DNA of 64,000 bases from Anaerolineae bacterium (GTDB lineage Bacteria > Chloroflexota > Anaerolineae > JAAYZQ01): the NCBI GenBank assembly GCA_023544525.1, contig JAMJFU010000001.1, positions 1,259 to 65,258 on the forward strand, given 5' to 3'. Positions 6,562 through 50,207 of the stretch are shown one piece after another. A program made the position numbers and the translations under genes. Below the pieces are notes generated by a model. It ran no database searches. It was given only the letters and a program-made list of their open reading frames with translations, and was not told where the DNA came from. The number at the start of each line of letters is the position of its first letter. Within the stretch, counting starts at the first letter, position 1.

Positions 6562-9500
6562 GAATTGGTGTCTACGTCTGCTACTGTGGATCCAACATCG
6601 CCGGGACGGTGGACGTCGAGGCGGTGGCCAGGTATGCTGAGCAACTGGACGGCGTATTCGTGGCTCGCACCAACAAGTACACCTGTTCCGATCCGGGGCA
6701 GGAGAGCATCCGCCACGACATCTGCGAGTACGGTGTCGACCGGGTGGTTGTAGCTGCCTGCTCGCCGCGCATGCACGAGCGGACCTTCCGCGGGACGCTA
6801 CACTCGGTAGGCCTGAACCCCTACTTTCTGGAGATAGCCAACCTCCGCGAGCACTGTTCCTGGGTGCATACGGACATGGTCACAGCCACGGCCAAGGCAA
6901 AAGACTTGATCCGGGCCGCCGTGGAACGGGTGCGCCGGCACGAACCACTCTATCCTCGCCAGGAACCGGTCACCCGGTCGGCCATGGTGGTCGGCGGGGG
7001 CATCGCTGGCATCCAGGCCGCGCTGGACATCGCCAATTCAGGATACCCGGTCTATCTGGTTGAGCGACAGCCATCTGTCGGCGGGCACATGGCCCAGTTG
7101 GACAAGACCTTCCCCACCCTCGATTGTTCGGCCTGCATCCTCACGCCCAAAATGGTAGACCTTGCGGCGCACCCCAACGTCCACCTGTTGGACTATAGCG
7201 AGGTGGAAGATGTGCAGGGCTATGTCGGCAACTTTCGGGTGAAGGTCCGGCGCAAGCCACGCTACGTCGACGTAGACAAATGCACCGGCTGCGGAACCTG
7301 TGCCGAGGCCTGCCCACGCGAGCTGCCCAGCGAGTTCGACCTGGGGCTCGCCAAACGCAAAGTGATCTACCGGCCCTTTCCCCAGGCAGTGCCCAACGCC
7401 TTTGTGATCGACAAAGTGGGCATTGCACCTTGCCAGAATGCCTGTCCGGCAGGCCAGCATGCCCAGGGCTATATCTCCTACATCCGGGAAGGCCGGTTCG
7501 AAGAGGCCCTGCGCATCATTCGCGAGGACAACCCCTTTGCCAGCGTTTGCGGCCGGACCTGCCACCACCCCTGTGAGGGCAACTGCAACCGGCGCCTGGT
7601 CGACGAGTCCATCGCCATCATGGAGCTGAAGCGCTTTGTGGTGGATTATGTCTATGCCCGGGGTCTGCCACGCCCCATCGAGCCGGTGTCCCAGACGCGT
7701 GAGGAGCGCGTGGCGATCGTTGGCTCTGGGCCCTCCGGCTTGACGGCGGCTCAGCACCTGAACAAGATGGGCTATGGCGTGACCGTGTTCGAGGCGCTCC
7801 CGGTGGCTGGAGGCATGATGCGCACGGGCATCCCGGAGCATCGCTTGCCCAAAGGCATCCTACAGCGCGACATCGACGACATCCTGGCCCTGGGTGTGCA
7901 GTTGCGGCTGAATAGCCCGGTCGGCCAGCCGGCGACACTGCTCAAAGCCCATGGTGGCAATTACGATGCAGTCTATCTGGCAACCGGTGTGAGCCGGACC
8001 ACGAGTCTGGGGATACCGGGCGAAGAACTGACGGGCGTGCTGTCGGGCATCGCGTTTTTGAGGCACGTCAGCCTCGGCCGGCCTGTGCGGATCGGGAAGA
8101 GAGTCGCCGTGGTAGGGGGCGGCATCACCGCCGTGGATGCAGCCACCACGGCCCTGCGCCTGGGGGCTGAAGAGGTGAGCCTGGTCTACCGTCGATCCAG
8201 GGGCGAGATACCGGCCTATTCCTGGGAGCTGGAAGAGGCAGAGGCAGAGGGTGTCCGTCTGTTGACCAACACCGTGGCCACGCGCATCCTGGACAACGAC
8301 GGCTGTGTGAGCGGAATGGAATGTGCCCAGTCGCGGCAGCTGAGCAAGATCGACGACAGTGGCAAGCGGGTGGTCGTGCCCGATCCGGGCACAGAGTTTG
8401 TCATGGAGGTGGACACCGTCATCCGGGCCATCGGCCAGTTCTCCGACCAGGTATTCCTAGAGGAGCCATTCGATACGATGGTGGGTGACCAGGAAACGCT
8501 GGCCACGGGGATCAGCGGGCTCTTTGCCGGCCGCGGGGCTGTCGCGGGTGCTGGGTTCGTCATCAATGCCGTGGCCTCGGGACACGAGGCTGCCCGCTCC
8601 ATCCATCGCTACCTGCAGGGTGAGCCCCTGCAACAGGCGGAGCCCAACAAGCGGCCGGTGGAAAAGTGGACCCGCGAGGAAGCAGAGACCAAGGTGCGGC
8701 TGGGCGCCATCGTACCCACACCACGCCAAGAGCCAGCGCGCCTATCCCTGGAGGAACGGGTAGAGACCTTCCGGGAAGTAGTGCTGCCCCTGACGAAGGA
8801 GCAGGCCATGGCCGAAGCAGCCCGCTGCCTGGACTGTGGCATCTGCTCCGAGTGCTACCGCTGCGTGTGGGCCTGCGAGCGAGAGGCCATCGACCACAAC
8901 ATGCAGGAGCGGGTGGAAGAGCTTGAGGTCGGGGCCATCGTGCTGGCGACGGGTTTCGAGCTGTATGACGCCCGAAATTTGCCGCAATATGGTTATGGAC
9001 GCCATGAGAACGTGTATACTGCGCTGGAGGTGGAGCGGCTGGTCAACGCCAGCGGCCCAACCGGGGGCCACGTCGTCTTGAGAGACGGGCGCGAGCCCGG
9101 CGCCGTGGCCATCCTTCACTGCATCGGCAGCCGGGACCGGCAGCACAACGCCTACTGCTCCCGCGTCTGCTGCATGTACTCGATGAAACTGGCCCACCTG
9201 ATCCGGGAAAAGACCCACGCCCAGGTCTATGAATTCTATTTCGACATTACTGCCTACGGCAAAGGCTATGCCGAATTCTATGAGCGCATCCAGGAGGAAG
9301 GCGTCATCTTTGTGCGGGGCAAGGGCGCCGAGGTCGGAAGAGGGCCCGGTGGCGGCTTGGTCGTCCGCGCCGAGGAGACCCTGCTGGGTGAGATTGTAGA
9401 GATCCCCGTAGACATGGTCGTGCTGTCCACGGCCATGGTGCCCGCCGCCGATGCCGAGCAGCTGGCCCAGCTCTTCCACGTCAGCCGCAGCGAGGATGGC

Positions 9501-30641: not shown

Positions 30642-31661
30642 TTAGGGCGAAAAGAAAAGCATGCCCACGCCCAGTGCCTCGAGGGCCTCCTGCGCGTAGT
30701 AGCGCACCAGGTAGCTGGGATCCTCGAGCACACCGAACAAGGGCCCGATCGCCCTCTGAGACTTGATGCGGCCCAGGGCGCGGACCGCCAAGAGACGTGT
30801 GTGGGGATCCTCCGCCTCGAGCCTTCCGGCCAAGACCTGGACGGCAGGCTCGCCGATCATGCTCAGCGCGTCGGCTGCGATACTGGCGACAAAGGCGCTC
30901 TCGTCTCCCAGCAGGGTGGCCAGGGCCGGAGCCGCTTCCCCCGCTCGCAGGCGGCCGAGGGCCAGGGCGGTGCAGGCCCGCACATCAGGCTCCGGATCGC
31001 CCAGCACACCGACCAAAGCGGATACGGCCGCCTCTCCGCCGATCTCGGCCAGGGCACGGGCCGCCCACCAGCGCGTGTTGGCGTTGCCCCCGCTCAACAT
31101 CTCGACCAGGGGCGGGACAGCTTCCTGCCCAAAACGCCGCAGCGCCAAAGCGGCGGCCTCGCGACGCTCGTCATCCGCAGTGTCCAGGATCTCGAGCAGC
31201 TCAACCAGCTCTTTGTTTTCAAGCATGACCTTTTCCGCGCCCAGAGATATAGCAAACCAGCCATCGCCGGGCAGAACGGGCACATATACGAGGTGTCCCG
31301 GGCACCGGCAATCAGAGGCACCAAAACCAGGCACCACGATCCGGGCGCCAGGCAACCGGCCAAGTGTCAGGGCCCAACTGCACTCCAGTTTCTCACTGGT
31401 CTGCCGCACCCAGGCACCGCTCCAGGCAGCTCGTTCCCGAAAGAAATCGATGTGCCAGTGGGCCTTCTTATCCGCTCCCAGCCTGCGTCTGTGTCGCCGC
31501 AGACGGGCCAGCAGGCCACCCGGCCCGCGTGCGCTGCCGCTGTAGAGATACCAGCCAGCAGGCATCTGGAACGTGCCCAGACGCCCAATGGAAACAGCCT
31601 GTGGCTGGTCCAGTGACAGCGCCAGCACGTAGGCTCCCATTATACCCGATCCTGTGCGCAT
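30642..31661 (-). CDS. DUF123 (GIY-YIG-like) domain fused to PBS-lyase/HEAT-like repeats
   Basis: N-terminal YLYSGSARG...RLRRHRRR...HWHIDFF matches DUF123 signature; C-terminal tandem ~30-aa HEAT-like repeats (VR..AARALG/ALGRL). Confidence 0.55.
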   Translation of the reverse strand: MRTGSGIMGAYVLALSLDQPQAVSIGRLGTFQMPAGWYLYSGSARGPGGLLARLRRHRRRLGADKKAHWHIDFFRERAAWSGAWVRQTSEKLECSWALTLGRLPGARIVVPGFGASDCRCPGHLVYVPVLPGDGWFAISLGAEKVMLENKELVELLEILDTADDERREAAALALRRFGQEAVPPLVEMLSGGNANTRWWAARALAEIGGEAAVSALVGVLGDPEPDVRACTALALGRLRAGEAAPALATLLGDESAFVASIAADALSMIGEPAVQVLAGRLEAEDPHTRLLAVRALGRIKSQRAIGPLFGVLEDPSYLVRYYAQEALEALGVGMLFFSP

Positions 31662-33342: not shown

Positions 33343-34386
33343 ATGCATTTGGATTACCAGCCGATCACGTTGAACTTGGAGACCCCGTTCCGCATCGCCC
33401 ATGGCACCAGCCTGGTGCGCGAAAACGTCCTGGTCCGCATCCGTGCCGCAGGCCTCGAAGGCCTCGGCGAGGCGGCCCCGGTGCGCCAACACCACGAGAC
33501 CCAGGCAGGTGTGATGGACTACCTGGCAGGCCTGGAGTTGCCTGGAGATCCCTTTCTCCTCGAGGAGGTAATGGCTTCCCTGCCGCCGGGCTCCCAGGCG
33601 GCCAAAGCAGCCATCGACATGGCGCTCCACGACCTGCAGGGCAAGATGCTGGGTGTGCCACTCTATCGCCTCTGGGGCTTGAACCCGGCCCGGGCTCCTG
33701 AGACCTCCTTCACCCTGGGATTGGGCCCTGTGGCTGAGGTCGAGGCCAAGGCCCGAGCCGCAGCCGAGCGTTTTTCGATCCTCAAGCTCAAGCTGGACGC
33801 CGACGAGGCGGGCTGCCTGGCGCTCGTGCGAGCAGTCCGGGCGGCTGTGGACAGCCGGCTGGTGGCCGACGCCAACTGCGCCTGGACCGTCGACCAGGCC
33901 CTGCGGCTGATCCCGGCCCTGGCCGACCTGGGCCTGGAGTGGATCGAACAGCCACTGGCGGAAGAAGACCTGGAGGGTTTGCGGAAGCTGCACCCCGAAT
34001 CACCATTGCCCATCTTTGCCGACGAGCCGGTGCGCACAGCGCGCGACATCCCGCGGTTGGCCGGCTGCGTGGACGGGGTGAACATCAAGGTCATGAAGGC
34101 TGGTGGGCTGCGCGAGGCGCAGCGAATGATCGCCGTGGCCCGCGCTCACGACCTGCAGGTGATGCTCGGCTGTATGATGGAGACCTCGGTGGGGATCACG
34201 GCCGCTGCCCACCTGGCACCGCTGGTCGATTGGGCAGACCTGGACGGCAACCTGACGGTCACCAACGACCCGTTCATCGGCGTCTTGGTTGAGAAGGGCA
34301 AGCTAATCCTGCCTGACGGTCCAGGCCTGGGTGTCAGGCCCCGGCCCGCGCCCGCTGGGACAGAGGACTCGGGGGCAAAGACATGA
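33343..34386 (+). CDS. Enolase-superfamily enzyme (MR/MLE subgroup; dipeptide epimerase-like)
   Basis: MR_MLE N- and C-domain pattern, KxK...D...E...D metal ligand spacing. Confidence 0.65.
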   Translation: MHLDYQPITLNLETPFRIAHGTSLVRENVLVRIRAAGLEGLGEAAPVRQHHETQAGVMDYLAGLELPGDPFLLEEVMASLPPGSQAAKAAIDMALHDLQGKMLGVPLYRLWGLNPARAPETSFTLGLGPVAEVEAKARAAAERFSILKLKLDADEAGCLALVRAVRAAVDSRLVADANCAWTVDQALRLIPALADLGLEWIEQPLAEEDLEGLRKLHPESPLPIFADEPVRTARDIPRLAGCVDGVNIKVMKAGGLREAQRMIAVARAHDLQVMLGCMMETSVGITAAAHLAPLVDWADLDGNLTVTNDPFIGVLVEKGKLILPDGPGLGVRPRPAPAGTEDSGAKT

Positions 34387-35456
34387 TCGTCATCGACGGC
34401 TCGTATGGCGAAGGCGGCGGGCAGGTCCTGCGGACCAGCCTGGCCCTGTCGGCCATCACGGGCCAACCCGTGCGCATCGAGCACATCCGCGCCGGCCGCC
34501 GCAAGCCAGGGCTCATGCCCCAGCATCTGACCGGGGTGCGGGCGGCGACCCGCGTATGCGATGCCCAGGTGGAGGGTGCCAGGCTCAACTCGCTGGAGCT
34601 GGCCTTTGCACCGCGGTCGGCGCCCAGAGCAGGGACGTACACCTTTGACGTAGCCCAGGCTGCCAAGGGGGGCAGCGCGGGCTCGGTGAGCCTCATCTTC
34701 CAGACGGTGCTCCTGCCCCTGGCCCTGGCGGAGGGCACCTCAGAGCTCACGCTGCGGGGTGGCACCCACGTTGCCTGGAGCCCACCCTACGACTACCTGA
34801 AGCGCGTCTACCTGCCCACCCTGGCCCGCATGGGCGTCCAGGCCAAGGTCAACATCCGCAAGTGGGGCTGGTACCCCATCGGTGGCGGCGAGGTCGAGGC
34901 GACCATCCACGGCCTGGGGCGGGCCAGCCTGGAAGCCATGGACCTTTCTCGACGCGGGGATCTACTCCGCGTACGGGGCTTGTCGGTCAGCAGCAACCTG
35001 CCCAAGCACATCCGCGTCCGCCAGGAGGGAGCGGCGTTGCAGGCACTGCGCTCCAACGGGGTCAATGCCCGCATCGATGCGATCGACGCCCCCTCCAAGG
35101 GCAAGGGCACCGCCGTGTTTCTGTGGGCCGACTTTGAGAATGCCCACGCGGGTTTCACCTCGTTGGGCGAGCTGGGCAAACCGGCCGAACAGGTTGCAGA
35201 AGAGGCCGCACAGGAGCTGGTCGAGTTCCTGCAGGCCCACGCTGCCCTGGATCGCCACCTGGCCGATCAGGTCGTGCTGCCCATGGCCCTGGCTGAGGGC
35301 AGGTCGTCCTTTACCACGGAAGCGGTCACCCAGCACCTGCTGACCAACGCCTGGGTGGTGAACCAATTCTTCTCCGGCCGGGTCCGTGTAGACGGACAGG
35401 AAGGCGAGCCGGGGGAGTGCTCCATAGAGGGAGTTGGCCGGGTGGCGGCGGATTAG
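34383..35456 (+). CDS. rtcA: RNA 3'-terminal phosphate cyclase
   Basis: IDGSYGEGGGQVLRTSLALS...HIRAGR N-terminus closely matches RtcA; ATGA overlap with upstream gene. Confidence 0.85.
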   Translation: MIVIDGSYGEGGGQVLRTSLALSAITGQPVRIEHIRAGRRKPGLMPQHLTGVRAATRVCDAQVEGARLNSLELAFAPRSAPRAGTYTFDVAQAAKGGSAGSVSLIFQTVLLPLALAEGTSELTLRGGTHVAWSPPYDYLKRVYLPTLARMGVQAKVNIRKWGWYPIGGGEVEATIHGLGRASLEAMDLSRRGDLLRVRGLSVSSNLPKHIRVRQEGAALQALRSNGVNARIDAIDAPSKGKGTAVFLWADFENAHAGFTSLGELGKPAEQVAEEAAQELVEFLQAHAALDRHLADQVVLPMALAEGRSSFTTEAVTQHLLTNAWVVNQFFSGRVRVDGQEGEPGECSIEGVGRVAAD

Positions 35457-35504: not shown

Positions 35505-36491
35505 CTACCAACGCTGGTGCACGTGGGGCTTGATGAGGCGGTCGTAGACATCGCGCACGGCAGCCATCGTTGCCTGGCTCAAGGGTGGCAGCTCGCTGGC
35601 GGCGACGTTCTCCGCAGCCTGCGAGGGCCGCTTTGCGCCCGGGATGGTACATGTGACCGCGTCGAACATCAAGACCCAACGCAGGGCCATCTGGGCCATG
35701 CTCGCCCCTTCGGGCACCAGCCGGCGAAGTTCGTCGACGGCCATCAACCCGACCTCAAAGGGCACACCTGCGAAGGTTTCCCCCACATCAAAGGCCTCAC
35801 CCTGCCGGTTGTAGTTCCGGTGGTCGCTCTCAGGAAAGGTCGTATCGGCGCTCATCTTGCCCGTGAGCAGCCCGCTGGCCAGCGGCACGCGGGCCAGGAT
35901 GCCCACCTGCCGTGCCGTCGCCTCGCGGAAAAAGAGCTTGGCGGGGCGGTGCCGGAGCATGTTAAAGATGATCTGCACGGTCTGCACATCAGGGTATTCG
36001 ATGGCCTTGAGCGCTTCCTCGACCTTTTCGACGCTGACGCCATAGTAGCGCAGTTTCCCGGCAGCCACCAGGTCGTCAAGCACGCCAAAGACCTCAGGCC
36101 GGTAGTAGACCTCGGTGGGCGGGCAGTGGAGCTGCAGCAGGTCGATGGCTTCTACGCCCAGGTTGCCGAGGCTGCGCTCCACAAAGGCGGTGAGGTTCTC
36201 CCGGTTGTAGCCATCGGCCATGTGGGGCGAAAGCCGCCGGCCCGCCTTCGTGGCGACGTAGATGCGCTCACCGGGGCGATCGCGCAAGACCTGGCCGACG
36301 AGGGTTTCACTGCGGCCATCCCCATAGACGTCCGCTGTGTCGATCAAATTGACGCCCAGATCCAGGGCCTTGTGCAGGGCCGCCAGGGATTCCTGGTCCC
36401 TGACAGGCCCCCAATCGCCGCCAATGCCCCAGGCGCCAAAGCTGACTTCCGAAACCTGCCAGCCGGTGCGTCCCAGTTTCCGGTAATCCAT
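35505..36491 (-). CDS. Aldo/keto reductase
   Basis: YRKLGRTGWQVSEVSFGAWGIG...IDTADVYG AKR signature. Confidence 0.85.
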   Translation of the reverse strand: MDYRKLGRTGWQVSEVSFGAWGIGGDWGPVRDQESLAALHKALDLGVNLIDTADVYGDGRSETLVGQVLRDRPGERIYVATKAGRRLSPHMADGYNRENLTAFVERSLGNLGVEAIDLLQLHCPPTEVYYRPEVFGVLDDLVAAGKLRYYGVSVEKVEEALKAIEYPDVQTVQIIFNMLRHRPAKLFFREATARQVGILARVPLASGLLTGKMSADTTFPESDHRNYNRQGEAFDVGETFAGVPFEVGLMAVDELRRLVPEGASMAQMALRWVLMFDAVTCTIPGAKRPSQAAENVAASELPPLSQATMAAVRDVYDRLIKPHVHQRW

Positions 36492-36502
36492 CGCATTTCC
36501 TC

Positions 36503-39049
36503 CTAAGTGGCAGGCTTGGCCTCATAGGCTGGCACGGACAGCACCTGGTCGCCGGCCATTACCTGCCAATAGGGCCGCCAGGCCAGGCCGAACAGGCCGA
36601 GCTGCACGTCGGTCCGGCGCGGCCGCACCTCGACTTCCTCGACATCGTCGATGCGCTCTGCCCATACCTGCTTGAGCTTGTCGACCTCCTCCCGGGCCTC
36701 CTTCTCCAACCCGTCGATCTCGTCCTCGAGCGCCTCGATGGTCCTCTCTGACTCTTCCAGGTCGGCCCTGGCCTGGCGCGTCATGCGCCGTTTGCGGCTG
36801 GCCGAGGACAGGCGCGAGGACGAGCGACGCCCGGTAAAGAGACCAAACACCGACTCGACGCCAGAAAGCAGTTCTTCCTGTTTGCGGGCGTCGTGTTCGA
36901 CCTTGTCCTCGCGAAGCTCCTGCTTCTCCCGGTCCAGCTTGACCTCGATGCGCTGCAGCTCCCGCTCGTACTTTACCTTGAGCTTCTCGGCCTCGGCCTC
37001 GGAGGCATCCTCTGCCGCCTTGCGACAGCGGCGCTGGAATTCCTTCTGGCTCTCGCCAGGTTCCGAGTAGAGATCTACGTGGGGATTATGCCAGAGCGTG
37101 ATGGAAGAGTTGTAGTATAGATAATCCTCAAACTCGTTCCGTAGGGCCGTATACCGCCTGGCATCGCCCATATCGGAGGGCAGCTGGGCAAATCGAGCGC
37201 CCCGGTCGGGCTGCGACTCGAGGGTCCCGGCATCCAGGTCGACCCTGACCGAGGACCAGTCGAGGATCTGGCCGCTACCTTCCAGGGGGAGCAGATAGGT
37301 CACATCTTCCGCGTAGGTTTGCCGGCTCTTGGTGTGGACAAAACGCAGCCGGGCCGAACCCAGCAAACCTGGCTTGTAGACCAGCAGGCCCTCATCGCCT
37401 GCACCACGCCCTCCGGCCTGGGCGCGCCCGCCAGTCAGGTCAGACAGGGCAGAACTGAAAGATATCCGGACCGGCAGAAAGGCTTGCTTTACCGAGGAGG
37501 GCAGCTGGGGCGGGACCTGGCTGAGCCCATCAGTGATGGCTGCGTGCGGCTCGCGCCCTTCCGGGCGGGCTTCTGCGGCCTGCCTGGCCTCCAGCGCCAC
37601 TGCGGCACCGGGCGCCGCCTCGCCTGGCGCTGGAGCCTGCTCCGCTACCAGTTGCTGGATCTGGCGACGGGTCAGCGGCCCGCGTAGGTAGCTCATGGCC
37701 CAGCGGGTGTGAAAGACATGGGGCCTGTCCTCGTGCACGTTGTGTAGCAAGAATACGCGCGAACCCAGGGCCGAGATCATGCGGTCGAACTGCGCCCGGC
37801 TGGTGCCACCGGCGGTGACCTGGACCCCTTCCAGGCCATCGAGCAGCCTCTGTTTGTCCCGGTCGGCCTGCATGCGCCCGATAAACCAGGTGCCCGCGTT
37901 GGACAACGCCTTGTAGTCCAGGTCCACGGGGTTCTGCGTGGCCAGGACCAGGCCCAGGCCAAAGGCTCGCGCCTGTTTGAGCAAGGTCAAGAGCGGCTTC
38001 TTGGTGGGCGGGTTGGCCGGGTGGGGCGGCAGGTAGCCGAACATCTCGTCCATGTAGAGCAGGGCGCGAAGGCTGGTGGTCCCGGTCTGGGCCCGCATCC
38101 AGCTCACTACCTGTTCCAGTAGCAGGCTGACAAAGAACTCCCGCTCGGCATCGGACAGGTGGGCGATGTAGAGGACGCTCACCTGTGGCTTGCCCGCGGG
38201 GCTGCGCAACAAGCCCGAGATCTCTAGCGGCTGGCCCCTGAGCCAGTGTACAAAAGTGGGCGAAGCCACCAACCCGTTAAAGAGCATGGCCAACTGCAAG
38301 CGGTCCTTTTCAGGGAAGAAGGTGTCCAGGGGAAAAACGCCCAATTGGCTGAACGGCGGCTTCTGGATGCGCATGATCAACTGGGTCAGGTCCAGATCCT
38401 CACCGCTGCGCCACGCCTCTGCAAAGATATTCGACAGCAAAATGTGCTCCCGGCTGCGCACCGGGTCCGCTTCGATGCCGATCAGTGCCAGCAGGGCCGA
38501 GACGACGGTCTCGATCTTGTCCCGGATCAACTCATCATCCGCCTTCAGCTCCGCAGCAGGTGCCTTGAACGTCTGCAGGATGCTCAGCTCGCGGCCGGCG
38601 CTGCTGCCGGGTGTGTAGATGGCAAAGTCAGCCGCATCTTTCAGACGGCGGATCCGCTCTGCCCCCTGCCCGGTCGCTGCCAGGCCATCGCGCCACTGGC
38701 TGGCGATCTTGGCAGCGTAGCTGTCCAGGTCCATGTCCTTGCGGCGAGCATCGTCAGGGTTGACCCAGGGCCGAAAATCCTCGGGCTGCAGCTCGGGAAA
38801 GGTGAGCAGCAGGTTCGTCATGTCACCCTTGGGGTCGATCACCAGGGACGGAACGCCATCCAGCACGGCCTCCTCAAGCAAGATGATCCCCAGGCCCGTC
38901 TTACCGCTGCCGGTCATGCCCAGACAGACGGCATGTGTGGTCAGATCCCGAGCGTCATAGTGCACCGGTTCCTCGAGCAAGCTGCCCTCCGACAGGTCGT
39001 ACCCTTGCCCCAGGTAAAAACTCGCCAGGCGTTCCTCGACTGGTTCCAT
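36503..39049 (-). CDS. HerA/FtsK-superfamily (DUF87-like) P-loop ATPase with ~350-aa coiled-coil-rich C-terminal extension, 848 aa
   Basis: Walker A GMTGSGKTG, Walker B LYMDEMF, VLATQNPVDLD motif; charged coiled-coil C-terminus. Confidence 0.6.
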   Translation of the reverse strand: MEPVEERLASFYLGQGYDLSEGSLLEEPVHYDARDLTTHAVCLGMTGSGKTGLGIILLEEAVLDGVPSLVIDPKGDMTNLLLTFPELQPEDFRPWVNPDDARRKDMDLDSYAAKIASQWRDGLAATGQGAERIRRLKDAADFAIYTPGSSAGRELSILQTFKAPAAELKADDELIRDKIETVVSALLALIGIEADPVRSREHILLSNIFAEAWRSGEDLDLTQLIMRIQKPPFSQLGVFPLDTFFPEKDRLQLAMLFNGLVASPTFVHWLRGQPLEISGLLRSPAGKPQVSVLYIAHLSDAEREFFVSLLLEQVVSWMRAQTGTTSLRALLYMDEMFGYLPPHPANPPTKKPLLTLLKQARAFGLGLVLATQNPVDLDYKALSNAGTWFIGRMQADRDKQRLLDGLEGVQVTAGGTSRAQFDRMISALGSRVFLLHNVHEDRPHVFHTRWAMSYLRGPLTRRQIQQLVAEQAPAPGEAAPGAAVALEARQAAEARPEGREPHAAITDGLSQVPPQLPSSVKQAFLPVRISFSSALSDLTGGRAQAGGRGAGDEGLLVYKPGLLGSARLRFVHTKSRQTYAEDVTYLLPLEGSGQILDWSSVRVDLDAGTLESQPDRGARFAQLPSDMGDARRYTALRNEFEDYLYYNSSITLWHNPHVDLYSEPGESQKEFQRRCRKAAEDASEAEAEKLKVKYERELQRIEVKLDREKQELREDKVEHDARKQEELLSGVESVFGLFTGRRSSSRLSSASRKRRMTRQARADLEESERTIEALEDEIDGLEKEAREEVDKLKQVWAERIDDVEEVEVRPRRTDVQLGLFGLAWRPYWQVMAGDQVLSVPAYEAKPAT

Positions 39050-39149
39050 ATCAGCCTCTCCCTCCCTACGTCTGTTGGGTTCGCACTCGAACCGCGGGCG
39101 GTCCCGATCGATCGCCCGGGCTCAACTGCATTGTACCAAAGACTTGGCC

Positions 39150-39191
39150 AGAAGGCAAAGCAAAAGGGGTGACACCGGGCGGCATCACCCC
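39150..39191 (-). terminator. Rho-independent terminator on minus strand (GGGGTGA-N12-TCACCCC + U-tract)
   Basis: Hairpin followed by TTTTGCTTTG on minus strand. Confidence 0.55.
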
Positions 39192-39467
39192 TATCCGTCG
39201 GTTCAGGACAACACTACTACCGATCGCAGGGCCCCCCCTACCCTAAACGACCACGTCATCCTGGCCGATCAGACCAAAGTTGGGCGAGATCCATCGGTCG
39301 ATCTCGCAGGTACAACCATCCATGCTGGGCGTCGTCGTGACCCCCAAAGCCGGCCTTGTTGCGCACAAGGAACCCCCCCGTCAAGCGAAAGACAACGCCA
39401 ACGGTCAGAATAAAGGCAACTTCCGTCTTGGGCTTACCTCCGGGTGGGGTTGAACCCTGTATCAAGA

Positions 39468-39495
39468 TAATACCCCATTTTGGGTCATTTGTCAA
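39468..39495 (-). promoter_or_regulatory. Minus-strand promoter TTGACA-16-TATTAT driving a ~270-nt unannotated transcript
   Basis: Consensus hexamers read on minus strand, downstream of hisS stop. Confidence 0.45.
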
Positions 39496-39595: not shown

Positions 39596-40870
39596 CTAGC
39601 CGCCAGTGGCCTTCAGGCGTTCGATGAGATCGGCTTCTGCATACGGCTGCTGATCCCCGGTCTTCATTTCCTTCAGGACCACCTGGCCTGCCTGCAGCTC
39701 ATCCGGCCCGAGGATGATCACAAAGGGGATCTCCTTACGATCGGCGTAGCGCAGCTGTTTGCCCAGCCGCATCGGTTCCAGGACCTGCTCGGCGTTGATC
39801 CCCGCGCGTCGCAGGCGACCGGCCAACGTCACGGTCGGGGCATAGAGCTCCGCGTCAAAGAGTGTGACCAGGACGGTGGTGGGTGTCAGGGGCAGCTCAG
39901 GGCGTTTGCCCAGGCGCTCCAGGAGCAGCTCGATGATCACGTCGCCCATGGCAAAGCCCACGCCCGTGATCCGTTCGCCGCCCACGTCTGCGACGAGGTT
40001 GTCGTACCTGCCCCCACCGAAAATGGCTCGAAACCTGCCCGCGCGGTCATAGGCCTCGAACACAGGGCCGGTGTAGTAGTCCAGGCCCCGCACGATTCCG
40101 GCATCGTAGAGCAAATAGCCGGCCATGCCAGAGGCCTCAGCCGTGGCGAACACCTGCCGCAGCTCCTCTGACTCCCGCCAGAGGTCCGGGTCCGCGAGCA
40201 GATCGCGCAGCGCAGCCAATTGCCCTTCGGTCAGGCCGATATCCAATGCCCAGGCTTCCCACTTGTCCACGGGCAGACGGTCGCGGCGGTCGATGAGGCG
40301 AAAGACATCGAGGCGCATCTCCTCTCCCACGCCGATCCCGGCCAGCTTGCGCTCCATCAGACGGCGGCTGTTGATACGGATCACGACCTCGTCGGCGCCC
40401 AGTCCCAGGCTACGAAAGAATTCGGCGGCGATGGACACAATCTCCCCGTCGGCGGTGGCAGAGTCGGAGCCCAGGAGGTCGATGTTCCACTGGAAGAACT
40501 CCCGGCTGCGCCCGCGCTGGGGACGCTCGTAGCGCCAGAAGGGGCCAAAGGAGAACCAGCGCACCGGCAGGACCAGGGTCGCCTGCTGCTGGGCCACCAT
40601 GCGCGCCAGGGACGGTGTCAGCTCGGGGCGCAACGCCAGTTCGTCGCCGCCGCGATCGGTGAGCACGAAGGACTGTTCCTTGACCAGTTCCTCGCCGCTC
40701 TTGGCCGCATATAGCTCCAATCGTTCCAGGAGCGGGGCCTCGTACTCCTGGTAACCGAACCGCTCCGAGATGTCGCGGATCTTCTGGTAGAGCCAGTTGC
40801 GGAAAGCCATGGTCTCTGGATAAAAGTCGCGCGTGCCCTTGACGGATTGTATGGTTGTCTGGGTCGCCAT
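39596..40870 (-). CDS. hisS: Histidyl-tRNA synthetase
   Basis: Class II aaRS motifs, KGTRDFYPE N-terminus, anticodon-binding C-terminal domain. Confidence 0.9.
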   Translation of the reverse strand: MATQTTIQSVKGTRDFYPETMAFRNWLYQKIRDISERFGYQEYEAPLLERLELYAAKSGEELVKEQSFVLTDRGGDELALRPELTPSLARMVAQQQATLVLPVRWFSFGPFWRYERPQRGRSREFFQWNIDLLGSDSATADGEIVSIAAEFFRSLGLGADEVVIRINSRRLMERKLAGIGVGEEMRLDVFRLIDRRDRLPVDKWEAWALDIGLTEGQLAALRDLLADPDLWRESEELRQVFATAEASGMAGYLLYDAGIVRGLDYYTGPVFEAYDRAGRFRAIFGGGRYDNLVADVGGERITGVGFAMGDVIIELLLERLGKRPELPLTPTTVLVTLFDAELYAPTVTLAGRLRRAGINAEQVLEPMRLGKQLRYADRKEIPFVIILGPDELQAGQVVLKEMKTGDQQPYAEADLIERLKATGG

Positions 40871-44126: not shown

Positions 44127-47100
44127 ATGAGCAGGCGAATGACGCTTTTTATGAATGGTGGGCTCTTTTTGTTCCTCATCGTTCTGCTGCTGGGCGCCTG
44201 TGGGTCGCCCACGCCTGGGGTTACGCCTACGCCCGGTGAGCCTACAGCCACCATACCGCCGACGGAGACACCCCTGCCAACGTCGACGCCCATGCCCTTG
44301 CCCGCGCCGGGGCTCCTTTTCCGCAGTCCCGCTCCCGGCGAGGAGCAACCGCTCCAGGAGCCTATCGAGTTAACCTTTGACCAGCCCATGGACCGGGCCA
44401 GTGTGGAGGCAGCGCTGACCATCTCGCCCACACTGGGGGGCCGGCTTACCTGGCTCGACGACCGGACCGTCTCTTTTGTGCCCGACAGAGAGCTGGAGCG
44501 CGGGGCCCGTTTCCGCGTGACGGTGGATGACAGGGCCGAGAACGTAGAGGGCAAGCCGTTGGAGGAAGCGGTCAGCTTTGAGTTCAGCACCGTGGGCTTC
44601 CTCGAGGTCAGCCAGGTCATGCCCGCACCCGGCAGCGAGGATCTGGATCCCGACACGGTCGTGACCGTGGTATTCAACCGGCCGGTGGTGCCTCTGACGG
44701 CCATCAACCGCCAGGACGAGCTGCCCCAACCTCTGACCTTCGTGCCTCCGGTAAGGGGCAGCGGGGAGTGGCTTAACACGTCCATCTATCTCTTCCGGCC
44801 GGAAGAGGGTCTCCTGCCGGCAACACAATACAAGGCCCGGGTCGCCGCCGGCCTGACCGACACCAGCGGGGCAGTACTGGAGGAGGACTATACCTGGGAG
44901 TTCGCCACGGTGCTGCCCGCGATCCTCGCCGTCGCACCGCCGGAGGGTTTTGCGCAGGTTGGGCCTACCGACGCCATCAGCGTCACGTTCAACCAGCCCA
45001 TGGATCACGCCTCAGTCCAGGCTCACTTCACCCTGGAAACAGACCTGGAGGCGGTGCAGGGAGCTTTTCAGTGGAAGGGTGGAGAGAAGGCCGTTGATCC
45101 AGAGACGATGCTCTTTGTCCCGGACGAGCCGTTACCCCGAGACACTGCCTTTGTGGCCCGCGTGTCAACCGGCGTGCAGGCCCGGGCGGGCAATGCCGGC
45201 ACCCAGGCGGAGAAGCGTTGGAGCTTTTCCACTGTCAAGCAACCGGGCATCGTCAAGGCCTCGCCCCCCGACGGCGCCAGGGGTGTCGCTCCGGGTCAGC
45301 GCCTGAGCATCACCTTCGCCAGCCCCATGCAGACCAAAGGCTTTCTCGACTACCTCACCATCCTCCCGGCCGCAACAGAGGTCTACACCTCGTGGTCAGA
45401 GAACGATACCCACGTCGAGATCGACTTCCAGGGCAAGCCGGCCATGACCTACCAATTCACCCTGCGTGCCGCCACCCCCGATCGCTATGGCGCGCCGTTG
45501 GGCAGTGCCGCGCGCATCCGCTTCACGACCGGGGATCTGTCTCCTATCGCCAGCCTGACCACCATCGATCGCCTGGGCACGGTCAGTGCCTATACCGACA
45601 CGGTGGTCTATGCCACCTACCGCAATGTGTCGAGCCTCCGCATACGGCTATATCGCCTCAGCTTGCGGACGTTCATGGACCTGAACACGCGCTGGGAGGC
45701 CTGGGACGAATTCGTGCCGAACGAAGACGAGTTGGTGCGGGCCTGGTCCCGCAGGGTCCAGGCACCCCGCAACGAGGCCCGCCTGGCGCGCCTGCTGCTG
45801 GTCGACGGTGAGGGCGACCCCCTGCCGCCCGGCCTGTACTACGTCCAGCTCACGGCACCCGAGATCCAAAGCTTGAGCACAACCAGCAGCAAGCTATCCC
45901 GCTACATGTTCGTCAAGTCACGGCTGAACCTGACGCTCAAGCAGACCCGTTCTGAGGCCCTGGTCTGGGCTACAGACCTGGCATCAGGGCAGCCGGTGGC
46001 GGATCTACCGGTGGACTTTTATTCGGCGACCGACCAGATAACGGGCAGCGGCAGGAGCGATCCTGATGGCCTGGCGTTGGTCCCGGATCTGCCCATGGAA
46101 GACCTCTGGAGCCCGTTCTTTGCCGTGGCTGGCGAGCCGGGCGCTGAGGGGTTTGGCATCGCCTTCAACGGATGGGAGCAGGGCATCAATCCCTGGGACT
46201 TTGGCGTCGACTCGGAGTTCTGGGCCAGCGACTACCAGGGCTACCTCTACACCGACCGGCCCATCTACCGCCCGGGCCAGACCGTCTACTTTAAGGGCAT
46301 CGTGCGCGCCGACGACGATGCCCAGTACAGGTTGCCAGAGGAGATCGATGCCTTGCAGGTGCACGTCAACGATGCGCAGGGCAAGGAGCTGTATCGAAAG
46401 GTCCTCAATCTCAGCGACATGGGGACGTTTTACGATCAACTGGTGCTGGACGGCGAGGCGACGCTGGGCGACTACTTCCTCGAGGTCCAAGATCCGGAGC
46501 ACGAGCTCTATGCCGGGACCAGCTTCCGCGTCGCCGAGTACAAGAGCCCCGAGTTCCAGGTGTCAGTCACCACAGCCCGCGATGCATATCTCAACGGCGA
46601 GTCGATCAACACCACGGCCGAGGCGACCTATTACTTTGGGGGCCCAGTCGCCGGTGCCGACGTCCACTGGAGCGTGCTCAGCAACGATTACTACTTCCAG
46701 TACGACTGTCCCCAGGGCCAGGACTGTCCCTGGTACAGTTGGTCGGACTTTGAGTGGGGCGAATACCCCGAAGGCGAGTTCTATGGCGGCTATGGGCGGC
46801 TGGTCGGCGAAGGCGACGGCGAGACCGATGCCGAGGGCCGGGTCACCTTCAGGGTCCCGGCCAACCTGGCCAATGATGCACAAAGCCAGGTCTTAACCCT
46901 AGAGGCCAGCGTGACCGATATCAACGACCAACAGGTGAGCAGCCGCACGGCGACCATCGTCCACAAGGGCGAGTTCTACATCGGCGTCGCCCCGCGCGGC
47001 TACCTGGCCCGTGTCGGCGAGGAAAAAGAGGTGGACCTGCTGACCGTCGATTGGGACAGCCAGCCAGTGGCGGGTGTCGACCTGACCGCCGTCGTCATGG

Positions 47101-50100
47101 AACACCGCTGGTACAGCATCCGGCGCCAGGCCGAAGACGGCCGCTACTACTGGGACTGGACCACCGAGGACATCCCGGTGATGACAACCACCGTGACCAC
47201 AGACAGTGAAGGGCAGGCCGTGGTCGCCTTCACCCCGGAGAAAGCGGGCAGCTATCGTGTGCGTGCCACCGGGCACGACAGCCGGGAGAACGAGATCCGG
47301 AGCAGCGCCTACTTCTGGGTCTGGGGTGGCGACGGATACGTGAGCTGGCGGCAGGAAAGCAACAACCGCATCGAGCTCATCGCCGACAAGGAAGAGTACC
47401 AGGTGGGCGACGTGGCCGAGATCCTGGTGCCTTCGCCCTACACAGGCACGGTGCAGGCGCTGATCACGGTGGAACGAGGCCGTATCATCGAGACCGAGGT
47501 GCGCGAACTGGCCAACAACAGCGAGGTCCTGCGCTTGCCCATCGTCGAGGAGCACGTGCCCAACGTCTTTGTCTCGATCCTCATCGTCCAGGGCTCTGAG
47601 CAGGCAGCCGACGGCCTGGCGACGTTCAAAATGGGGGTCGTCAAGCTGCCGGTTTCCCTGGAGTCCAAGACGCTGAACATCGCCCTCACCCCGGACAAGG
47701 AGATGGAGGCAGGTGAGCATTACGCCCCCCGCCAGACGGCGACCTACGACGTGCTGGTGACCGACAACGAGGGCAGCCCTGTCGAAGCCGAACTGTCGCT
47801 GCGCCTGGCCGACCTGGCCGTGCTGGCCCTGGCAGACGAGCCCGGGCAGACGCTGTTGGAGACATTCTGGCGCAACCGGGGCCTGGGCGTCAAAACCAGC
47901 ACGCCGCTGATCGTTGCAATGGAGCCCTTCAACCGCGAGATCGCGCCCCGCACCAAGGGTGGGGGTGGTGACGAAGGGGAGGGGCTGCTGCGCAGCCGGT
48001 TTGCCGATACGGCTTTCTGGGATGCGGCAGTGCGGACCGACGAGGACGGCCAGGCACAGGTGACGGTGCAGCTGCCCGACAACCTGACCACCTGGCGCAT
48101 GCAGGCCCGGGGCATCACCGCCGACACCAGGGTGGGCCGGGCGGAGGTGGATGTGCTGAGCACCCTCGACCTGCTGGTGCGACCTGTTCTGCCACGCTTC
48201 TTTGTGGTTGACGACGAAGTGGAGATCGCCACCGTGGTCCACAACAACACCGGCGAGGCGTTGGAGGCACAGGTCAACATTAGCCTGGAAGGCCTGGCCC
48301 TCGAGGGCCCAAGCAGCCAGGCGGTCAACATCGGCCCAGGCGGCCAGGTGAGGGTGGCCTGGCCGGTGACAGCGCTGGGCGGCAGCCAGGCCCAGGCAGA
48401 CGGCAGCCAGCAGGTGAACGTGCGGATGTGGGCCAGCGCGGGCGACCTCTACGACGGGCGTGAGGACAGCTTGCCGCTGTACCATTACTCCTCGCCAGAG
48501 GTGGTGGCCACGGCCGGCATGCTATCCGAGCCGGGGCTCCGGCAGGAGGTCATCCAATTGCCGCGGACCTTTGACCCCAACCAGGGCGAGCTCAGCGTGC
48601 AACTGGATGGCTCTCTGACCGCCGCCACGCAAGATGCGCTCGACTACCTGGAGCATTACCCCTACGAATGCGTCGAGCAGACGGTCAGCCGTTTCTTGCC
48701 CAATGTAGCCACGTGGCAGGCCCTGGATGAGATGGGCCTGGAGCGCCCAGAGTTGCGCCAAAAGCTGGCCCAGATGGTAGGCGTGGCGCTGCAGCGGATC
48801 TATGCCCAACAGCACTACGACGGCGGCTGGGGTTGGTGGGTCAACGACGAGAGCAACCCATACCTGGCGGCCTATGTCCTGCAGGGCATGCTGGAGGCCC
48901 ATCGTGCCGGTTTTGTCGTGGACCAGGGGTCTATGGACAAGGCTGCCGGCTACCTGCGGGAGAAACTGCCCTCGGTCGGGCGCGTCGACCTGAATTGGGA
49001 GGCAAACCGCCTGGCCTATGAGCTGTACGTCCTGGCTGAATATACAAGCACCTTCGACGAGCAGAGCAGGGGTGAACTTGGGCTGGCCATCCGCCTGTTC
49101 GAGAAACGGCACCTTCTGGATCACTACGGGCAGGCGACCCTGGCCATGGCCCTGAGCTTGTTGGAGCCGGATGAACCGCAGCGGGCCCAGACCTTGCTCG
49201 AGGACCTGAGCGGCGCCGCCGTCCTGAGCGCCACGGGCACCCACTGGGAAGAGGCCGAGCCCGATTATTGGAACATGAACACCGATGTGCGGACGACGGC
49301 CATCGTGCTCTGGGCGCTGTCCCACCTGCAGCCAGAGGATCAGCTCCTGCCGGGTACCGTCCGCTGGCTGATGGCCATCCGCGAGGAAGGGCACTGGGCC
49401 TCGACACAGGACAATGCCTGGTCGCTCCTGGGGCTGGTGGCGTACATGCGTGCCAGTGGTGAGCTGCAAGGGGATTTCACCTATAGCCTGAGCCTCAACG
49501 GCCAGCAGATGGCCATGGGAGAGGTTTCAGCGGAGAATATCGACGAGAGCCAGCAACTGCAGATCGAGATCGGCCGGCTCCTGGTGGAGGAGGGCAACCG
49601 GCTCGTGATCGAGCGCCAGGCGCCTGCGGCAGGCCAGACAGGTGAGGGCCAGCTCTACTACTCGGCCTACCTGCGCTACTACCTGCCTGCGGAACAGATC
49701 CAGGCACTGGACAGGGGCATCGTCGTCGCCCGCCAGTACAGCCCGGCCGAAACAGAGGCGGGAGGGGTCGCCCGGTACGTCGATACGGCACAGGTGGGCG
49801 ACGTGATCCAGGTCAAGCTGACGCTCATCGCCCCCACCGACCTGTACTACGTGGTGGTCGAAGATCCTCTGCCCGCCGGCTTTGAGGGGGTGGACCTCAG
49901 CCTGAAGACAACCAGCGTGGTTGGAGAACAGCCCACCCTGCGCAACTTGACGGCAGAGGAGGAGGACCGCTGGTATCGTTGGTATGGTTGGGGATGGTGG
50001 TGGTTCTCCCATTCAGAGATGCGGGATGAGAAAGTGGTGCTCTTTGCCGAATACCTGCCCCGGGGTAGCTACGAGTATACCTACCTGATGCGCGCCGGTG

Positions 50101-50207
50101 TGCCGGGCGAGTTTCACGTCACGCCGACGACCGCCTATGCCATGTATGCCCCAGAGGTCTTTGGCCGGAGCGATGGAGGCATGTTCACGGTAGAACCGGC
50201 TGATTGA
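44127..50207 (+). CDS. Alpha-2-macroglobulin family lipoprotein (bacterial A2M/YfhM-like), 2026 aa
   Basis: Lipobox LLGAC at N-terminus, repeated MG-domain-like segments, thioester-region motif YECVEQ, TED/receptor-binding-like C-terminus. Confidence 0.8.
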   Translation: MSRRMTLFMNGGLFLFLIVLLLGACGSPTPGVTPTPGEPTATIPPTETPLPTSTPMPLPAPGLLFRSPAPGEEQPLQEPIELTFDQPMDRASVEAALTISPTLGGRLTWLDDRTVSFVPDRELERGARFRVTVDDRAENVEGKPLEEAVSFEFSTVGFLEVSQVMPAPGSEDLDPDTVVTVVFNRPVVPLTAINRQDELPQPLTFVPPVRGSGEWLNTSIYLFRPEEGLLPATQYKARVAAGLTDTSGAVLEEDYTWEFATVLPAILAVAPPEGFAQVGPTDAISVTFNQPMDHASVQAHFTLETDLEAVQGAFQWKGGEKAVDPETMLFVPDEPLPRDTAFVARVSTGVQARAGNAGTQAEKRWSFSTVKQPGIVKASPPDGARGVAPGQRLSITFASPMQTKGFLDYLTILPAATEVYTSWSENDTHVEIDFQGKPAMTYQFTLRAATPDRYGAPLGSAARIRFTTGDLSPIASLTTIDRLGTVSAYTDTVVYATYRNVSSLRIRLYRLSLRTFMDLNTRWEAWDEFVPNEDELVRAWSRRVQAPRNEARLARLLLVDGEGDPLPPGLYYVQLTAPEIQSLSTTSSKLSRYMFVKSRLNLTLKQTRSEALVWATDLASGQPVADLPVDFYSATDQITGSGRSDPDGLALVPDLPMEDLWSPFFAVAGEPGAEGFGIAFNGWEQGINPWDFGVDSEFWASDYQGYLYTDRPIYRPGQTVYFKGIVRADDDAQYRLPEEIDALQVHVNDAQGKELYRKVLNLSDMGTFYDQLVLDGEATLGDYFLEVQDPEHELYAGTSFRVAEYKSPEFQVSVTTARDAYLNGESINTTAEATYYFGGPVAGADVHWSVLSNDYYFQYDCPQGQDCPWYSWSDFEWGEYPEGEFYGGYGRLVGEGDGETDAEGRVTFRVPANLANDAQSQVLTLEASVTDINDQQVSSRTATIVHKGEFYIGVAPRGYLARVGEEKEVDLLTVDWDSQPVAGVDLTAVVMEHRWYSIRRQAEDGRYYWDWTTEDIPVMTTTVTTDSEGQAVVAFTPEKAGSYRVRATGHDSRENEIRSSAYFWVWGGDGYVSWRQESNNRIELIADKEEYQVGDVAEILVPSPYTGTVQALITVERGRIIETEVRELANNSEVLRLPIVEEHVPNVFVSILIVQGSEQAADGLATFKMGVVKLPVSLESKTLNIALTPDKEMEAGEHYAPRQTATYDVLVTDNEGSPVEAELSLRLADLAVLALADEPGQTLLETFWRNRGLGVKTSTPLIVAMEPFNREIAPRTKGGGGDEGEGLLRSRFADTAFWDAAVRTDEDGQAQVTVQLPDNLTTWRMQARGITADTRVGRAEVDVLSTLDLLVRPVLPRFFVVDDEVEIATVVHNNTGEALEAQVNISLEGLALEGPSSQAVNIGPGGQVRVAWPVTALGGSQAQADGSQQVNVRMWASAGDLYDGREDSLPLYHYSSPEVVATAGMLSEPGLRQEVIQLPRTFDPNQGELSVQLDGSLTAATQDALDYLEHYPYECVEQTVSRFLPNVATWQALDEMGLERPELRQKLAQMVGVALQRIYAQQHYDGGWGWWVNDESNPYLAAYVLQGMLEAHRAGFVVDQGSMDKAAGYLREKLPSVGRVDLNWEANRLAYELYVLAEYTSTFDEQSRGELGLAIRLFEKRHLLDHYGQATLAMALSLLEPDEPQRAQTLLEDLSGAAVLSATGTHWEEAEPDYWNMNTDVRTTAIVLWALSHLQPEDQLLPGTVRWLMAIREEGHWASTQDNAWSLLGLVAYMRASGELQGDFTYSLSLNGQQMAMGEVSAENIDESQQLQIEIGRLLVEEGNRLVIERQAPAAGQTGEGQLYYSAYLRYYLPAEQIQALDRGIVVARQYSPAETEAGGVARYVDTAQVGDVIQVKLTLIAPTDLYYVVVEDPLPAGFEGVDLSLKTTSVVGEQPTLRNLTAEEEDRWYRWYGWGWWWFSHSEMRDEKVVLFAEYLPRGSYEYTYLMRAGVPGEFHVTPTTAYAMYAPEVFGRSDGGMFTVEPAD

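Follow-up and report, generated by a model that had tools for sequence, protein, structure and literature searches.

Motors of the HerA/FtsK clade are known from three settings, namely the resection of DNA ends together with NurA, the pumping of chromosomes and plasmids, and lately anti-phage complexes in which the motor carries a bound effector. HerA proteins of the first setting (archaeal ones and that of Deinococcus radiodurans) present their HAS barrel as the NurA-binding face, and the HerA ATPases of defence systems (SIR2-HerA/Nezha, DUF4297-HerA, the DndH C-domain, TdpAB and mad8 of MADS) always come with an effector (Sir2, a nuclease or a restriction endonuclease) that is encoded next to them or fused to them, or within an eight-gene operon. 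In FtsK and SpoIIIE, which belong to the same superfamily, a ring motor is joined to a localisation module by a long, low-complexity, Pro/Gln-rich linker of variable length. YjgR/DUF853 (PF05872; PDB 11kk, 'HerA like helicase YjgR') is a stand-alone bacterial HerA-like ATPase of ~500 aa with an early Walker A motif and no HAS barrel, and our literature search found no paper describing its function. Here we analyse a stretch of 64,000 nt (the window; positions 1,259 to 65,258 of contig JAMJFU010000001.1, from an Anaerolineae bacterium of the Chloroflexota) that encodes at 36503..39049, on the minus strand, a stand-alone HerA-clade ATPase of 848 aa plus stop with a C-terminal rod module.

An 848-aa open reading frame (ORF) had been reported at this position by a first-pass annotation of the DNA, with no strand given, and the ORF list and its translation confirmed it as a minus-strand gene that runs from an ATG at 39049 to a stop codon at 36503-36505. 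A protein of identical sequence has been deposited from an Anaerolineae metagenome-assembled genome (MAG) under the label 'DUF87 domain-containing protein'. Because full-length homologues number in the thousands, sequence comparison marks the ORF as a genuine gene and no chance ORF.

Architecture of the motor, tether and rod

Both the sequence and the fold of the protein's core place it among the P-loop ATPases of the HerA clade. Modelling of the full-length protein with AlphaFold2 (AF2; 68 diverse homologues, mean predicted local distance difference test score, pLDDT, 90.1) revealed an ATPase module at aa 1-470 (37640..39049, on the minus strand like all parts of the gene given below; pLDDT >90) that consists of a RecA-like P-loop core with helical insertions and has no N-terminal HAS barrel, since Walker A already begins at aa 44 with two short strands preceding it. 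When this fold was searched against the PDB by Foldseek, all of the top 50 matches were HerA-clade structures (E 1e-13 to 2e-9), among them HerA of Thermococcus, Sulfolobus and Deinococcus, SIR2-HerA, DUF4297-HerA, the DndH C-domain and TdpAB. The best structural matches were HerA proteins of the HerA-NurA setting (9x1m, 4d2i and 7wrw), and defence HerA proteins were matched as well (8wiv, 8j4u, 7es4 and 8wfd). Profile searches recovered shorter stretches of the same core, with Pfam DUF87 (PF01935) passing its cutoff (29.0 bits vs 23.2) over a match limited to aa 28-81 around Walker A, the HerA models of PADLOC and NCBIfam matching aa 280-407 (Walker B to sensor) far under their equivalog cutoffs, and sequence searches of the PDB returning motif-level matches alone, to HerA, IcmO and YjgR. 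The HerA/FtsK-superfamily assignment made in the first-pass annotation is thereby supported by a DUF87 score above cutoff, by the Foldseek matches and by the invariant catalytic residues that follow.

At aa 44, 331 and 370 the protein does carry GMTGSGKTG, LYMDEMF and ATQNPVDLD, respectively, the three motifs on which that assignment had rested, and an alignment of 68 sequences with 34-82% identity (alignment A1) revealed invariant positions in each region. These are G44, T46, G47, G49 and K50 in the Walker A motif or P-loop (GMTGSGKTG, aa 44-52, 38894..38920), and D334 and E335 in the Walker B strand (LLYMDEMF, aa 329-336, 38042..38065); the DPKGD motif is likewise invariant. Further along the chain, the Arg-finger and sensor-1 region (KQARAFGLGLVLATQNPVDLD, aa 358-378, 37916..37978) holds invariant K358, R361, G364, Q372, N373, D376 and D378 and aligns with the RKxG...SQRP motif of solved HerA proteins. 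The HerA/FtsK clade has been defined by a sensor-1 Gln at which core strand 4 ends and, shortly before that strand, an Arg finger (PMC10853773), and the positions of R361 and Q372 fit this definition, so that we assign them as the Arg finger and the sensor-1 Gln, respectively. With its Walker, DPKGD, R361 and Q372 residues all invariant, the ATPase looks catalytically competent and, we infer, is oligomeric. The module as a whole shares a mean identity of 58% with the query (the protein of the window) across 67 diverse homologues from different phyla.

Between the motor and the remainder of the protein, aa 471-505 (37535..37639) form a flexible, Pro/Ala-rich linker that is disordered (pLDDT <50 over aa 474-501), shares 18% identity and varies in length from 35 to 75 aa among 77 homologues. 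Longer family members owe their extra length to low-complexity linker, as in P0139, whose linker (aa ~480-730, ~250 aa, 20% Pro and 17% Gln) is reminiscent of that of FtsK. Informative domain fusions in such longer members were considered and rejected, the extra length being linker apart from one Zn-ribbon array, in the variant P0221, where about a dozen CxxC zinc-ribbon motifs are appended C-terminal to the rod module (aa 825-1032).

The C-terminal module is a beta-rich domain with a long helical hairpin inserted into it, an arrangement found both in the full-length model and in a separate AF2 model of aa 502-848 (mean pLDDT 90.1), which recovered the same parts. The first part of the beta-rich base covers aa 506-667 (37049..37534) and includes a long hairpin of its own (E555-572/E577-588), after which come the antiparallel helical hairpin at aa 668-800 (36650..37048; helices 668-738 and 746-800) and, at about aa 801-848 (36506..36649), the second part of the base, whose strands close the domain past the hairpin and contain W824, which is kept in 76 of 77 sequences. 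The first-pass annotation had described the last ~350 aa as a highly charged coiled coil; a long helical hairpin is indeed present, but it takes up just aa 668-800, and the rest is disordered linker and beta-rich domain. Of the 133 hairpin residues ~50% are D, E, K or R, and the composition of the beta-rich domain is ordinary. Despite an identity of ~31%, the length of the hairpin is fixed, with 69 residues from F671 to G740 and 60 from G740 to position 800 and an interquartile range of zero across 77 sequences.

At the tip of the hairpin (aa 726-762, 36764..36874), alignment and composition revealed two stretches in succession, the first hydrophobic and Gly-rich (SGVESVFGLFTG), the second basic and Ser-rich (RRSSSRLSSASRKRRMTRQAR). 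The former, which has a mean hydropathy of +1.1 compared with -1.5 in the helix body, is closed at the end of helix 1 by a near-invariant G740-R741. Where helix 2 starts, Ser/Thr and Arg/Lys abound and the mean net charge is +6.4 (at least +3 in 66 of 68 sequences), and the remainder of helix 2 is acidic. The pLDDT of the tip is low in both models. No transmembrane (TM) segment is predicted in the protein, the highest hydropathy over 19 residues being 1.75, in a core strand.

With no match in Pfam and no relative in the PDB by sequence or by fold, the C-terminal module is novel and without a described relative. Antiparallel coiled-coil hairpins of ~100 Å are common to a range of other modules (HlyD/MacA adaptors, PspA/Vipp1/ESCRT-III, IpaB, AhlC and SMC arms), in some of which the tip or an adjacent element contacts membranes or partners. 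YjgR, unlike the query, has no rod module; its Pfam model PF05872 scored 16.5 bits against a cutoff of 22, over aa 29-80 only, and our family profile matched PDB 11kk over aa 37-79 only. We are highly confident in the architecture as described, in which a motor of HerA-clade identity is followed by a flexible tether and a length-constrained rod with a hydrophobic and basic tip.

Family, inheritance and gene neighbourhoods

In the first-pass annotation the single-gene architecture had been called unusual, a view that the size of the family contradicts. A word-indexed protein search returned at least 8,000 relatives, all at E<=0.001, and the best 120 matches share 65-100% identity with the query and cover at least 99% of it in 119 cases and 97% in the other. 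An exhaustive search of cluster representatives (clusters at 50% identity) yielded 7,455 at E<=0.001 and 1,954 at E<=1e-30, with the top 150 all at E<1e-162 and mostly ~780-860 aa long. The public names of family members are all generic, and the literature search found no paper on a stand-alone HerA-rod ATPase family; this is a large and conserved family that is unnamed and uncharacterised.

Scanning one genome per species placed relatives at no fewer than 579 matched stretches. Among the matches listed, most belong to Chloroflexota (Anaerolineae, Caldilineae, Ardenticatena), 12 are loci of Chlorobiaceae that span Chlorobium, Chlorobaculum, Prosthecochloris and Pelodictyon, and further ones come from single MAGs labelled Nitrospirota, Gemmatimonadota, WOR-3, Saprospiraceae and Methanomethylicus. 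The 12 Chlorobiaceae proteins form one clade nested in the Chloroflexota radiation in a neighbour-joining tree, and this monophyly, together with their common flanking genes, indicates a single ancient acquisition in Chlorobiaceae and vertical inheritance from then on.

Protein searches of 72,556 plasmids and 50,697 phages found no full-length relative on any of them, and those of IMG/VR found only ATPase-only sisters, on which grounds an origin from mobile elements was rejected. The sisters are 8 proteins of 448-557 aa (L083-L090) with 31-48% identity to aa ~8-467 of the query. Their genes, on putative viral contigs, do not neighbour virion genes; they adjoin AAA+ ATPase genes in two cases (L083, L084) and in two others (L086, L087) lie directly upstream of genes for large FGE-sulfatase-domain proteins. 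One sister (L090) is without the beta domain but retains a short hairpin whose tip is similar. These contexts show that the motor module is employed in other, multi-gene settings, and the ATPase-only sisters look to belong to a multi-gene system, so far uncharacterised, that makes use of this motor.

A separate observation concerns a 224-kb Tsukamurella record typed as a plasmid (NZ_LR134464.1, 'plasmid 22'; L081), which may be a chromosome fragment because it bears a core ribosomal-protein operon. An island inside that operon holds VapBC, DUF559, a 1,088-aa DUF87 protein and a DEAD-box helicase.

Gene neighbourhoods were compared at 81 loci by all-against-all clustering of ORFs and a Pfam census of 140 flanking genes. 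No conserved partner emerged, as no neighbour family is found at more than 19 of the 81 loci, and the idea of a conserved partner gene was rejected because the recurrent neighbours represent lineage synteny. In Chlorobiaceae these are an ABC transporter pair, GDT1, GNAT, lipocalin and ATP-citrate lyase, and in the Anaerolineae subclade of the query they are hisS, a convergent RtcA gene and the small RNA (sRNA) described below; a gene for a phospholipase D (PLD)-like protein recurs in a few Anaerolineales. Genes for NurA, Sir2, restriction-modification, type IV secretion systems (T4SS), relaxases or capsids were found in none of the 81 neighbourhoods, and no enrichment of defence genes beside the ATPase gene was seen. 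The stand-alone status noted in the first-pass annotation thus holds across the family sample, and the gene is by observation a stand-alone, chromosomal, stably inherited, core-like gene. That annotation had also proposed a look at the contexts of homologues, which turned up none of the conjugative or T4SS type and mostly housekeeping ones, the latter an outcome that the annotation itself had named as speaking against its reading.

At one of these Anaerolineales loci (L066), a gene for a membrane-anchored PLD-like protein with two HKD motifs (6877-7950, plus strand) lies directly upstream of the ATPase gene on the same strand, its stop overlapping the ATPase start (gap -3), and in all 5-7 of the 81 loci, in Anaerolineales, have such a PLD-like gene.

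In the window, the neighbours named in the first-pass annotation were confirmed as an aldo/keto reductase (AKR) gene (35505-36491, minus strand) adjoining the stop side of the ATPase gene and hisS (39596-40870, minus strand) adjoining its start side, with no NurA, Sir2 or nuclease gene adjacent. The AKR start lies 11 nt past the ATPase stop, and the two genes are therefore probably co-transcribed at this locus. AKR was tried as a partner of the ATPase and rejected, being found 3' of the ATPase gene at just 2 of the 81 loci. On the other side, direct reading of the sequence revealed a strong Shine-Dalgarno-like element (GGGAGGGAGAGG, 39055..39066, minus strand) 5 nt 5' of the ATPase ATG, and a consensus scan gave a promoter-like TTGCCT-17-TACAAT with an extended -10 TG (39130..39158, minus strand), a candidate by pattern match alone whose TG-TACAAT box is kept in L005 and L002. 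Beyond AKR and hisS lie genes for RtcA, an enolase-superfamily enzyme, a response regulator and a class A penicillin-binding protein (PBP), and the GC content of the region around the ATPase gene is uniform.

Three further features of the window can be recorded. The rtcA gene (33343-34386, plus strand) overlaps the MR/MLE enolase-superfamily gene (34383-35456, plus strand) by 4 nt, which suggests that the two are co-translated. At 30642-31661 (minus strand), a 339-aa protein has a DUF123 domain (PF01986) fused to HEAT/PBS-lyase repeats, an unusual pairing, and an ORF of 2,026 aa lies at 44127-50207 (plus strand), downstream of the PBP gene.

A structured small RNA upstream of the ATPase gene

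A spacer of 546 nt separates hisS from the ATPase gene, and alignment with relatives revealed in it a novel structured sRNA of ~125 nt on the minus strand (39156-39281), for which a consensus scan gave a near-consensus promoter (39467-39495, minus strand) and a scan of the spacer a strong terminator (39165-39192, minus strand). Its sequence is conserved far above that of the flanking proteins. RNAalifold folded it into 40 pairs, 13 of which carry compensatory double changes, and the invariant elements are a G-rich apical loop (GGGU-AGGGGGGG-CCCU) and the terminator hairpin. Rfam 15 gave no match for the sRNA. With a covariance model the window gave one copy and more distant clades gave none, so that diverged copies in other clades, which we had considered, were rejected.

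The sRNA is present at 13 of 13 loci of the subclade of the query, and a metagenome scan by its sequence alone revealed a same-strand ATPase gene downstream on 10 of the 10 contigs that have enough downstream sequence; it precedes a same-strand ATPase gene at 23 of 23 informative loci. At some loci, L009 and L094 among them, a gene for an alpha/beta-hydrolase lies on the opposite strand between the sRNA and the ATPase gene. A role as leader or riboswitch of the ATPase gene was rejected in view of this intervening gene and with no antiterminator alternative evident. Because the opposite-strand hydrolase gene intervenes at some loci, we read the sRNA as an independent gene in tight synteny, limited to one Anaerolineae subclade. 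The sRNA and the ATPase may be tied in function, although nothing found here supports it.

The variable 5' part of the sRNA transcript (~39300-39440, minus strand) encodes in some relatives a small single-TM peptide, for instance MTEIAFALIVGFTLGLLVGFLMRSE... in L005. The upstream regions of L005 and L007 were considered beside that of the window, in which the start codon is ACG, and the segment is deleted in L006. Given the ACG start and the deletion, the transcript may be dual-function or decaying.

Proposed role and alternative explanations

Taking these observations together, the explanation that we favour as a whole, and hold tentatively, is that the protein represents a stand-alone family of HerA-clade motors with tether and rod that serves a housekeeping role in the maintenance or handling of the genome. 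Conservation, synteny and vertical inheritance argue for such a role and not for one in defence.

How the protein would work is a further step, and the tethered-translocase mechanism that we propose is possible and rather doubtful. By analogy with the characterised enzymes of the HerA/FtsK clade, all of them hexameric rings that translocate nucleic acid, and given the invariant Arg finger that would act in trans, the motor may assemble as a hexameric ring that hydrolyses ATP with the invariant Arg361 of a neighbouring subunit and pumps nucleic acid, most likely double-stranded DNA, through its pore. Six tethered rods would then, as their modelled anatomy suggests, serve as targeting or anchoring arms at a defined distance, with tips that may bind an anionic surface, be it the cytoplasmic membrane or nucleic acid; binding to the membrane is a guess. 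The succession of motor, flexible tether and anchor would be the design of FtsK and SpoIIIE in reversed order. In the query, unlike in FtsK and SpoIIIE, the motor is N-terminal, there are no TM helices and no gamma (KOPS-reading) domain, and the Pfam model FtsK_SpoIIIE gives no match, so the resemblance is one of analogy and not of membership.

Several points weigh against this picture. The hydrophobic stretch of the tip is just ~12 residues long and without a predicted TM segment, the tip could equally be a site for protein-protein contacts or for RNA binding, and the inter-domain geometry of the full-length AF2 model is uncertain (predicted template-modelling score, pTM, 0.61). The partnerless neighbourhoods are compatible with a partner encoded elsewhere, and the scattered phyla show some horizontal transfer (or mis-binning of MAGs), which is typical of accessory genes too.

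An extended form of the housekeeping reading, which we regard as unlikely, would see in the family tethered ring translocases of a new class, in which six ruler-like coiled-coil rods fix the distance of the motor to the membrane or to an anionic scaffold. Such a reverse-built analogue of FtsK would take part in core chromosome handling in Chloroflexota and Chlorobiaceae and, in the lineage of the query, perhaps do so together with the sRNA.

Among the alternatives, the one that survives best, with little in its favour all the same, is a single-gene anti-phage or abortive-infection system, in which the ring would engage invader DNA and the tip would insert into the membrane as the heads of alpha-pore-forming toxins do, killing or arresting the cell. 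A role of this kind, as the core of a defence effector, had been hinted at in the first-pass annotation, and the query does share the ATPase fold and motifs of the defence HerA proteins, which always have their effector or operon at hand, whereas the query is partnerless at 81 loci. No gene for an anti-phage effector (Sir2, DUF4297 nuclease) was found in the window or at the 81 loci, and the model NF042943 scored 25.7 against a cutoff of 800. The search of PADLOC that the annotation had recommended gave only partial matches, to sub-family HerA models and to mad8 (E 1.4e-10, ATPase core only), and membership in MADS was rejected since that system is an operon of eight genes (mad1-mad8) and the neighbours of the query are AKR and hisS. 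With a conserved protein at a syntenic locus, vertical inheritance within lineages, no defence genes enriched nearby and no full-length relative on plasmids or phages, the hint at defence finds no footing in the data.

A canonical HerA helicase for the resection of double-strand breaks, with its NurA-type partner encoded elsewhere, is improbable. The nearest solved folds do come from HerA-NurA complexes, and the catalytic motifs are common to both (Walker A and B, DPxGD, the sensor-1 Gln and an Arg finger that precedes strand 4). The query nevertheless lacks the HAS barrel with its NurA-binding face, its Walker A starting from aa 44, has a nurA neighbour at 0 of the 81 loci, shares just 14-17% identity with canonical HerA and adds a C-terminal tether and rod module of 345 aa that HerA lacks and for which no counterpart is known. 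Its scores with the NCBIfam HerA equivalogs lie at 15-26 bits against cutoffs of 800-970 (NF040819, 18.3 vs 970; NF040937, 14.7 vs 800).

We see only a slim chance that the protein is an RNA-directed or ribonucleoprotein motor whose Arg-rich tip (RKRRMTRQAR) binds structured RNA, possibly the upstream sRNA. The position of the sRNA 5' of a same-strand ATPase gene at every informative locus, 10 of these from the search by RNA alone, speaks for it, as do the richness of the tip in Arg and the presence of RtcA, an RNA-end-processing enzyme, near the ATPase gene at 9 loci. The sRNA is, however, limited to one Anaerolineae subclade whereas the tip motif is family-wide, and it has its own promoter and terminator and is separated from the ATPase gene by an opposite-strand gene at some loci. 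The adjacency of RtcA, which is encoded on the opposite strand, reflects lineage synteny, and to our knowledge all known HerA/FtsK motors act on DNA.

Fainter still is the case for a protein-handling machine (an unfoldase, a disaggregase or a chaperone) whose ring would receive protein substrates caught by the hydrophobic tips of six coiled-coil tentacles, in the manner of prefoldin or of PAN/Mpa, as we know of no HerA/FtsK-clade ATPase that threads proteins, the fold matches are to generic hairpins and the polybasic tip better fits anionic ligands. A conjugative or T4SS ATPase (VirB4, VirD4/TraD-like) or one for the packaging of viral genomes is scarcely credible and already largely refuted, since the weak matches to TraD, TrwB, IcmO and CedB/CedD in the Walker A region and the motif-level matches in PHROGs (including a family annotated 'terminase large subunit') span only 45-75 residues and are far under cutoffs (TrwB_AAD_bind, 12.1 vs 20.5; TraD, 26.8 vs 366), plasmid and phage records hold no full-length relative, genes for T4SS, relaxases and capsids are found in 0 of the 81 neighbourhoods, and the query has no TM segment.

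The ATPase itself is ordinary, and what is noteworthy about the protein is its fixed-length rod, its partnerless state and its behaviour as a core gene. As a family without partners and without the HAS barrel, with a C-terminal module that has no relatives and is under a strict constraint on length, it fits none of the three settings in which HerA/FtsK motors are known, and the present analysis guards against labelling every stand-alone HerA-like gene as one of defence. Abundant and strongly conserved, the family is found in two major groups of bacteria that include culturable species of Chlorobaculum, and its role, once known, would place ring translocases in a new functional setting and give a function to thousands of proteins now called 'DUF87 domain-containing'.

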